Part shown: positions 1-413 of the stretch, in pieces | How the letters are laid out: each line of letters opens with the position of its first letter | Numbering within the stretch: the first letter of the stretch is position 1 | Source: Escherichia coli | Lineage (GTDB): Bacteria; Pseudomonadota; Gammaproteobacteria; Enterobacterales; Enterobacteriaceae | Assembly: GCF_003334355.1 (NCBI RefSeq) | Contig: NZ_QOWP01000108.1 | Reading direction: 5' to 3' (one strand) | Length of the DNA stretch: 413 nucleotides | Translations under genes and position numbers: made by a program | Notes under the pieces: generated by a model | Told to the model about the DNA's origin: nothing | The model's database searches: none | The model's input: the letters and a program-made list of their open reading frames with translations, nothing else

Positions 1-413
1 ACCTCGAAAAATCTTCCACCAGAAAGCTACCCAGTCGGCGCACCAATCCCGTGGCCATCAGATACCGTTCCGTCTGGTTATGCCCTGATGCAGGGGTAGA
101 CTTTTGACAAATCTGCATACCCGAAACTTGCAGCCGCTTATCCGTCAGGCGTGATCCCTGATATGCGTGGCTGGACGATTAAGGGCAAGCCCGCCAGTGG
201 TCGGGCCGTATTGTCTCAGGAACAGGACGGCATTAAATCACACACCCACAGCGCCAGCGTATCCAGTACGGATTTGGGGACGAAAACCACATCGTCGTTT
301 GATTACGGCACTAAATCCACGAATAACACTGGTGCGCATACCCATAGTGTTAGCGGTACGGCTGCTTCAGCCGGTGCACATACCCATTCGATGACATTTG
401 TTTCAGGTGGTTC
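1..413 (+). CDS. stf: Side tail fibre protein, lambda Stf-like, internal fragment open at both window edges; interrupted by an in-frame TAG at 97-99 (candidate pseudogene or amber allele)
   Basis: Frame +1 is open over 1-96 and 100-413, with a single stop (TAG, 97-99). The translation carries motifs I recall from lambda Stf and E. coli prophage fibre paralogs: [57 protein letters not shown] and the Gly/Ser/Thr-rich [24 protein letters not shown]. The family-like sequence continues straight across the stop, which argues for one disrupted gene rather than two adjacent genes. The reading frame enters at position 1 and leaves at 413 with no start or natural stop in view. The family-level symbol stf is used; the exact paralog cannot be told from this fragment. 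No alignment was run. Confidence 0.8.
331..390 (+). repeat. Imperfect direct repeat inside the coding sequence encoding two G-A-H-T-H-S His-box motifs
   Basis: ggtgcgcatacccat (331-345) and ggtgcacatacccat (373-387) are identical at 14 of 15 positions and both encode GAHTH in frame +1. A third His-box, SHTHS, lies at 238-252 but uses cac codons, so it is similar at protein level only. This is a coding-sequence repeat, not an intergenic repeat. Confidence 0.6.

Follow-up and report, generated by a model that had tools for sequence, protein, structure and literature searches.

An open reading frame (ORF) at positions 167..394 is the sole internal ORF of at least 60 amino acids in a 413-base stretch of Escherichia coli DNA, referred to here as the window, and raises the question whether it encodes a protein of its own or merely reflects another gene read in the wrong frame. 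A sequence-only reading of the window had proposed the latter, an out-of-frame overlap with a tail fibre gene. The present analysis arrives at the same answer: with a probability of about 0.97, the ORF is a shadow ORF that is not translated into a functional protein, and we infer that it is not expressed. It is enclosed by a reading frame supported by homology, has no protein family of its own, is not preserved as a frame among its relatives, has worse coding statistics than the enclosing frame, and is not preceded by a ribosome-binding site.

Open reading frames of the window

167..394, plus strand: shadow ORF in frame +2 with a GTG start, a TGA stop at 392-394, and a length of 75 aa; judged non-coding
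152..154, plus strand: TGA that opens the stop-free run of frame +2, made by the frame +1 codons GTG ATC
1..413, plus strand: internal part of an stf-like gene for a lambdoid side tail fibre in its real coding frame (frame +1), codons 854-990 of a 1075-aa homologue

The coordinates proposed for the ORF were reproduced. It lies in frame +2, as (167-1) mod 3 = 1, and runs from the GTG to the TGA at 392-394, which is created by the frame +1 codons ATG and ACA; two further stops of frame +2 are located upstream, at 86-88 and 152-154. The predicted product is Arg/Pro-rich (12 Arg, 11 Pro, and 9 Leu among 75 residues), and the ORF lies entirely within the fibre sequence of frame +1, both as the sequence-only reading had described. 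The statement that this is the only ORF in the track holds for a minimum length of 60 aa but not for a cut-off of 20 aa, at which two short ORFs on the minus strand (216..290 and 238..345) are added. Frame +1 is itself absent from the ORF list because the listing omits ORFs that run off the ends of the source, and the window comprises 413 bases.

Tail fibre homology of frame +1

37..180, plus strand: Phage tail collar domain (Pfam PF07484), which contains the amber codon; frame +1 residues 13-60, i-Evalue 7.7e-13, model positions 1-57 of 57
241..387, plus strand: three copies of the His-x-His motif in frame +1, within the needle region of the fibre (SHTHS at 241-249, AHTHS at 337-345, and AHTHS at 379-387)

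Frame +1 is free of stop codons across bases 1-413 apart from an amber codon (TAG) at 97-99, at which its uninterrupted reading fails. When the amber was read as Gln for family searches, the translation of frame +1 matched a total of 23 PHROG families, nearly all of which are tail proteins, with phrog_295 ('tail fiber protein') as the best match (E = 2.9e-93). Among the structures in PDB, it matched the receptor-binding tip of T4 gp37 (2XGF; E = 6.2e-60) over residues 8-131, His-x-His repeats included. The His-x-His motifs of the window sit in weak matches to the Pfam repeat PF03335 ('Phage_fiber') and align with the corresponding repeats of 2XGF; at the DNA level, positions 331-345 and 373-387 form a direct repeat. 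A collar domain followed by His-x-His fibre repeats is thus present in frame +1, as shown by the PF07484 match, the PF03335 repeats, and the alignment with 2XGF. The real gene is that of a lambdoid side tail fibre, similar in its C-terminal part to the tip of T4 gp37.

The same identity is evident from the genomic relatives of the window, which shows only one difference in 413 bases (99.8% identity) to at least 27 complete E. coli genomes among the matches listed, with the CDSs at these positions annotated as 'prophage tail fiber N-terminal domain-containing protein'. In its nearest relative, the locus L001 of E. coli strain Combat11I9, positions 1-413 of the window correspond to positions 4001-4413, which lie within a CDS at 1442-4669 (1075 aa). 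The offset of 2559 equals 3 x 853, so frame +1 of the window is the annotated frame of this CDS. The gene order in L001 is J, a lom-like gene, the fibre gene, and the gene of a tail fibre assembly protein (tfa), located beside appY and ompT. The J - lom - stf - tfa block is seen in the near-identical L001; the window itself holds no flanking genes.

A fragment of the same frame is also found under the name of another organism. The 116-aa protein P0007 ('phage tail protein, partial'), attributed to Staphylococcus sp. GCP4, shares 100% identity with frame +1 of the E. coli fibre across 71 residues and then shifts frame; its 428-base contig is likely a case of contamination or mislabelling.

The amber codon

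97..99, plus strand: amber TAG in frame +1, window codon 33, equivalent to homologue codon 886; CAG (Gln) in relatives
163..165, plus strand: ATG, Met55 of frame +1 in the window; along with GTG 151-153, the earliest site at which translation could resume beyond the amber

The amber codon is due to the sole difference between the window and L001, a T instead of a C at position 97, which turns CAG into TAG. All of the 82 relatives used for the conservation analysis (see "Conservation and selection among relatives") carry CAG at 97-99, and a Gln at this position is present also in T4 gp37, as seen in the alignment with 2XGF. Exact 29- or 35-mers containing the TAG were not found in viral contigs or metagenome contigs, and a TAG-containing k-mer was not found among one genome per species, which is a weak test for strain variants. 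Of the 5047 places at which a 61-mer centred on the TAG was located, spread over 3224 complete E. coli genomes and 20 phage records, none matched it exactly. The TAG may be an error of sequencing, an amber allele of laboratory origin, or a private mutation.

By descent, the sequence is a fibre gene; as written, it is a pseudogene or nonsense allele. The amber would terminate the fibre after codon 885 and remove its last 190 residues, among them the entire tip and most of the collar domain. Provided that the gene has the same end as in L001, a restart of frame +1 at GTG 151 or ATG 163 would give rise to an ORF of 172 or 168 codons, respectively, each of which would enclose the shadow ORF. The change from CAG to TAG should be fully corrected by a supE suppressor, which inserts Gln.

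Homology searches with frame +2

Even at E <= 10, none of the collections PHROGs, Pfam, NCBIfam, and PDB contained a match to the 75-aa translation of frame +2. Far larger collections yielded only a small number of matches. A word-indexed search of 5.8 billion protein clusters retrieved 9 proteins, the cluster of each consisting of one member sequence, and an exhaustive HMMER search of 1.84 billion representatives retrieved 17 matches.

The matches from both large searches were mapped back onto the fibre DNA. Nine of the mapped entries start in frame +1 and then slip into frame +2, which identifies them as indel-containing fragments of the fibre. Another ten consist of N-terminal pieces of other late-gene products that are fused out of frame to fibre DNA; the partners are Nu1, portal, FI, V (major tail protein), J, a tail-component-like protein, a fibre-like piece, and two unidentified pieces. 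One entry (P0019) stems from a diverged relative, where it is a shadow ORF of 161 aa at a contig edge, and two entries are unrelated low-complexity repeats that match by chance. An independent call of the 75-aa ORF 167..394 was not encountered among the protein collections searched.

On the basis of these searches, the frame +2 peptide has no independent conserved family and is represented only by about 20 rare database entries. The outcome is the one anticipated by the sequence-only reading, with frame +1 matching tail fibre proteins and frame +2 matching either no family or fibre DNA in the wrong frame; a conserved family matching frame +2, which that reading had named as evidence to the contrary, was found in neither the family searches nor the large protein searches.

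Coding statistics and origin of the stop-free run

Codon usage, proposed in the sequence-only reading as a means of telling the two frames apart, clearly favours frame +1. It was scored with two codon tables, one derived from 17 core E. coli genes and the other from the phage genes that flank the window in L001. Over the span of the ORF, the log-likelihood ratio of frame +1 was -2.5 bits with the core table and +19.1 bits with the phage table, whereas that of frame +2 was -43.1 and -43.6 bits with the two tables, which places frame +1 ahead by 40-60 bits. Rare codons, defined as a set of eight chosen from general knowledge as rare in E. coli, account for 19 of the 75 codons in frame +2 but for only 2 of 75 in frame +1.

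The length of the ORF is within chance expectation. When the codons of frame +1 were permuted, an internal off-frame ORF of at least 75 aa arose in any of the five other frames in 14.6% of the trials and in frame +2 in 7.9%. The full-length fibre gene of L001 contains 10 off-frame ORFs of at least 60 aa, the longest of which comprises 353 aa. Three of the ORFs in this gene (L001 1442-4669) are far longer than ORF 167..394 (336, 353, and 249 aa) and could attract spurious annotation:

Gene coordinates 398-1408, frame +2: off-frame ORF in the L001 fibre gene
Gene coordinates 1944-3005, opposite strand: off-frame ORF in the L001 fibre gene
Gene coordinates 1982-2731, opposite strand: off-frame ORF in the L001 fibre gene

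The open stretch in frame +2 is explained by the composition of the fibre. Frame +2 can acquire a stop only where a frame +1 codon that ends in TA or TG precedes one that begins with A or G. Such pairs are rare in this region of the fibre, which is rich in Ser, Thr, Gly, Ala, and His and poor in codons with T in the second position; the latter make up only 9 of the 76 frame +1 codons in the span, compared to a fraction of 0.288 in core genes. The scarcity of T in the second position thus renders stop-making codon pairs scarce and leaves frame +2 with a stop-free run, and the Arg/Pro-rich 'protein' represents nothing but fibre codons read one base later.

Alternatively, the ORF could be a gene in its own right, overprinted within the tail fibre gene in the manner of Rz1. 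Its location in a phage late gene and its Arg/Pro-rich product would fit such a gene, but several properties of the ORF speak against it. Shine-Dalgarno-like sequences (GGAG, GAGG, or AGGA) are absent from the 14 bases that precede GTG 167 (GATCCCTGATATGC), and inspection of the translation revealed neither a hydrophobic stretch nor an L-[AS]-[GA]-C box in the N-terminus of the frame +2 product, i.e., no signal peptide or lipobox of the Rz1 type. The high proportion of rare codons, a length that is within chance, and the lack of a homologue family among 5.8 billion clusters and 1.84 billion representatives point in the same direction.

Conservation and selection among relatives

Further evidence on the overprinted-gene alternative comes from 82 relatives with 86-99.8% DNA identity, all of which align with the window gap-free and in register. 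Frame +1 has no stop in any of them (0/82). The full 75-codon ORF in frame +2 is retained in 9 of the 82 relatives; in 48 of them, it is truncated at codon 3, 22, 36, or 61, and in the others it extends further. Added stops of frame +2 at positions 176, 233, 275, or 350 are found in many relatives. Truncating stops result from changes that are synonymous in frame +1 (ATT>ATA, Ile; TTG>TTA, Leu; GTT>GTG, Val; in the residue pairs IK, LG, and VS) or from conservative replacements in that frame (Thr>Met and Val>Leu).

The distribution of variable sites is likewise that of a gene in frame +1, whose third positions make up 46 of the 69 variable columns between positions 167 and 356. Pooled Nei-Gojobori estimates of pN/pS against the window were 0.09 for frame +1, 4.75 for frame +2, and 1.98 for frame +3; they are based on phylogenetically non-independent pairwise comparisons and describe a pattern rather than a calibrated estimate. 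Their direction is unambiguous: selection acts on frame +1 only.

Two observations are compatible with an overprinted gene, the conservation of GTG 167 in 81 of the 82 relatives and a frame +2 that is open to or past position 392 in 34 of them, including 21 that have no frame +2 stop before the end of the window. The retention of GTG 167 is, however, to be expected, because this triplet is the overlap of the conserved frame +1 codons CGT GGC, and the tendency of frame +2 to stay open is explained by composition. Conservation with constraint in both frames, start signals of its own, and protein features of its own were all not found for ORF 167..394. A true overprinted gene in frame +2 would be of interest, but the tests argue strongly against it; with the ORF truncated in 48 of 82 close relatives through silent or conservative changes of frame +1, and with a pN/pS of 4.75, this alternative is extremely improbable and close to refuted.

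Prophage fusions and a recurrent junction

The out-of-frame fusions among the database matches of frame +2 are located in decayed prophages, where independent deletions have joined upstream genes to the fibre. One example is a decayed lambdoid prophage with the gene order Rz - bor - Nu1 - E' - FI'::fibre' - tfa - methyltransferase - ompT; other contexts are portal'::fibre' - tfa, V'::fibre', and Nu1'::fibre' - tfa. The Nu1 fusion is present also in NCBI assemblies, where the contigs that carry it measure 490 kb and more than 1 Mb. Assembly chimeras were rejected as the source of the fusion 'proteins' in view of the coherence of these decayed-prophage contexts, the size of the NCBI contigs, and joins with microhomology of no more than 0-6 nt.

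The existence of such entries raises a further alternative, namely that frame +2 is translated as a mere non-functional tail, entered by frameshifting near the amber or by fusion to an upstream gene. Entry into frame +2 by fusion or by indel is documented in the databases, and the fusions lie in coherent prophage contexts that include NCBI assemblies. In the window, however, any entry from upstream would be terminated before position 167 by the frame +2 stops at 86-88 and 152-154; moreover, each of the fusions is rare, occurs in other genomes, and has a structure different from that of the window. Translation of this kind is therefore very unlikely, if marginally less so than overprinting.

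158-163 of the window: junction loci L003 3107, L087 2700, L090 2358, L091 2680, L092 3335, L093 3502, and L220

Most of the positions at which the fibre sequence resumes lie close together. In 8 of the 10 fusions, which are independent events in different genomes and differ in the gene on the left (Nu1, portal, FI, V, J, a fibre-like piece, and two unidentified pieces), fibre homology resumes at positions 158-162 of the window. The joins show microhomology of only 0-6 nt. In the DNA, identity with the fibre begins at base 162 in four loci, at 160 in a further locus, and at 158 in another; the junction at 158 is shared by L093 and L094, which contain the same fusion protein. The events at 158-162 involve two fibre haplotypes, each with three different left partners. 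The six or seven junctions that were read from DNA are consistent with a single breakpoint at 161/162, which is separated by 1 nt from the ATG of frame +1 at 163. The junctions of the remaining two fusions are located at approximately 187 and 245. In decayed copies that were identified in other ways, the endpoints lie at -117, -84, -4, and approximately 37; the last is present in two loci, in which mosaicism may account for the break in homology.

A microhomology coincidence combined with detection bias could also produce such a cluster, since a junction is visible only if it follows the frame +2 stop at 152-154. Junctions were, however, detectable from this stop up to about position 280, and their concentration at 158-162 within this range lets the clustering look real. 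On a tentative and rather unlikely interpretation, it could mark a site-specific break or recombination point in lambdoid stf genes, or reflect selection in domesticated prophages for a separately expressed C-terminal fibre tip together with its chaperone.

Several candidate causes of a break at 161/162 were rejected. A crossover site of a Gin/Cin/Pin-type invertase does not apply, as the gix site of Mu lies at codon 170 of S ('IQNLGLQ'), in a region that is not homologous to the window; a AAACCNNGGTTT core is absent from the window even when two mismatches are allowed. The only near-match to a Chi site is at 16-23 on the minus strand, away from the junction. A DNA hairpin is not supported either, because the fold is no better than that of shuffled sequences (z = +0.71) and there is no inverted repeat at the junction.

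All 121 copies of the right-hand sequence in viral contigs have the normal upstream sequence and lack a junction of the 161/162 type; such junctions are thus rare and confined to decayed prophages. The same FI and Nu1 junctions were not among the matches listed for complete E. coli genomes, which contain related decayed prophages with other endpoints.

Related remnants show further rearrangements of the fibre gene. In E. coli KSC9, a 348-aa CDS (L096 1662-2708) is annotated as 'phage tail protein' (WP_072020952.1); its start lies where that of the terminase large-subunit fragment is found in the sister loci L097 and L098, and it ends like the fibre. WP_072020952.1 looks like an in-frame terminase'::fibre' fusion that has been accepted as a normal protein. 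Many decayed copies (L088, L096-L098, and L219) have kept a block of fibre', tfa, and a serine recombinase (pinQ-like) but have lost the upstream head and tail genes; the retention of fibre tip, chaperone, and invertase genes recurs across Qin-like remnants.

Implications for annotation

The sequence-only reading had warned that automated gene callers could annotate the shadow ORF as a hypothetical protein. The warning is justified in principle, as illustrated by the fusion 'proteins' and by a diverged relative at a contig edge, in which a caller assigned a 161-aa shadow ORF in frame +2 (L219 54-539, P0019) and left uncalled the true fibre frame, which is open from the contig end to the start of tfa. 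For the window itself, the warning is overstated, because there is no independent database call of the 75-aa ORF, because an ORF that is longer and scores better would follow the amber in frame +1 (from GTG 151 or ATG 163), and because PGAP marks broken copies as pseudogene fragments. The latter is the case in complete genomes, where broken copies are annotated as tail-protein pseudogene fragments and not as shadow ORFs. The risk that shadow peptides are annotated is real for this fibre gene family but rare.

ORF 167..394 should not be annotated as a hypothetical protein, and the appropriate description of the locus is a side tail fibre gene interrupted by an amber codon (nonsense allele or pseudogene). 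The finding is correct but ordinary, and its value lies mainly in annotation hygiene. It illustrates the routes by which shadow peptides enter the databases: assemblies riddled with indels, decayed prophages in which genes have been fused out of frame, and gene calling at the edges of contigs.

Comparison with known systems

AntiFam collects sequences of this kind, spurious ORFs that shadow a real gene in another frame. ORF 167..394 shares with them a real frame that encloses it, the lack of independent homologues and of a ribosome-binding site, poor codon usage, a length within chance, and breaks that are silent in the real frame. There is no essential difference; in the present case, the real frame contains an amber codon and runs off both ends of the window, which makes frame +1 invisible to a simple ORF list.

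The counterexample is Rz1 of phage lambda, which is located inside Rz in another frame and encodes a proline-rich product; it is conserved, has its own start signals, and carries a lipoprotein signal sequence. ORF 167..394 is likewise a short, proline-rich ORF embedded in a gene of a lambdoid phage in a different frame. Unlike Rz1, however, it is interrupted in 48 of 82 relatives, has a pN/pS of 4.75, and does not belong to any family.

The enclosing frame has its counterparts in lambda Stf, the StfR-type fibres of E. coli prophages, and the tip of T4 gp37, with which it shares the collar domain and the His-x-His repeats; it differs from the Stf and StfR-type fibres by the presence of TAG where all relatives have CAG. 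According to literature quoted in PMC3945230, stf sequences are shared between temperate and virulent phages, T4 included. A parallel to the lesion in the window is the stf gene of lambda PaPa, in which a frameshift (described in PMC3945230) has split the gene into orf-401 and orf-314; the lambda record J02459 lists 'orf-314' under the match. In both cases, a side tail fibre gene has been inactivated by a single small lesion that leaves fragmentary ORFs in the annotation, but whereas the lesion in lambda PaPa is a frameshift in a different part of the gene, that of the window is a nonsense substitution in the collar domain.
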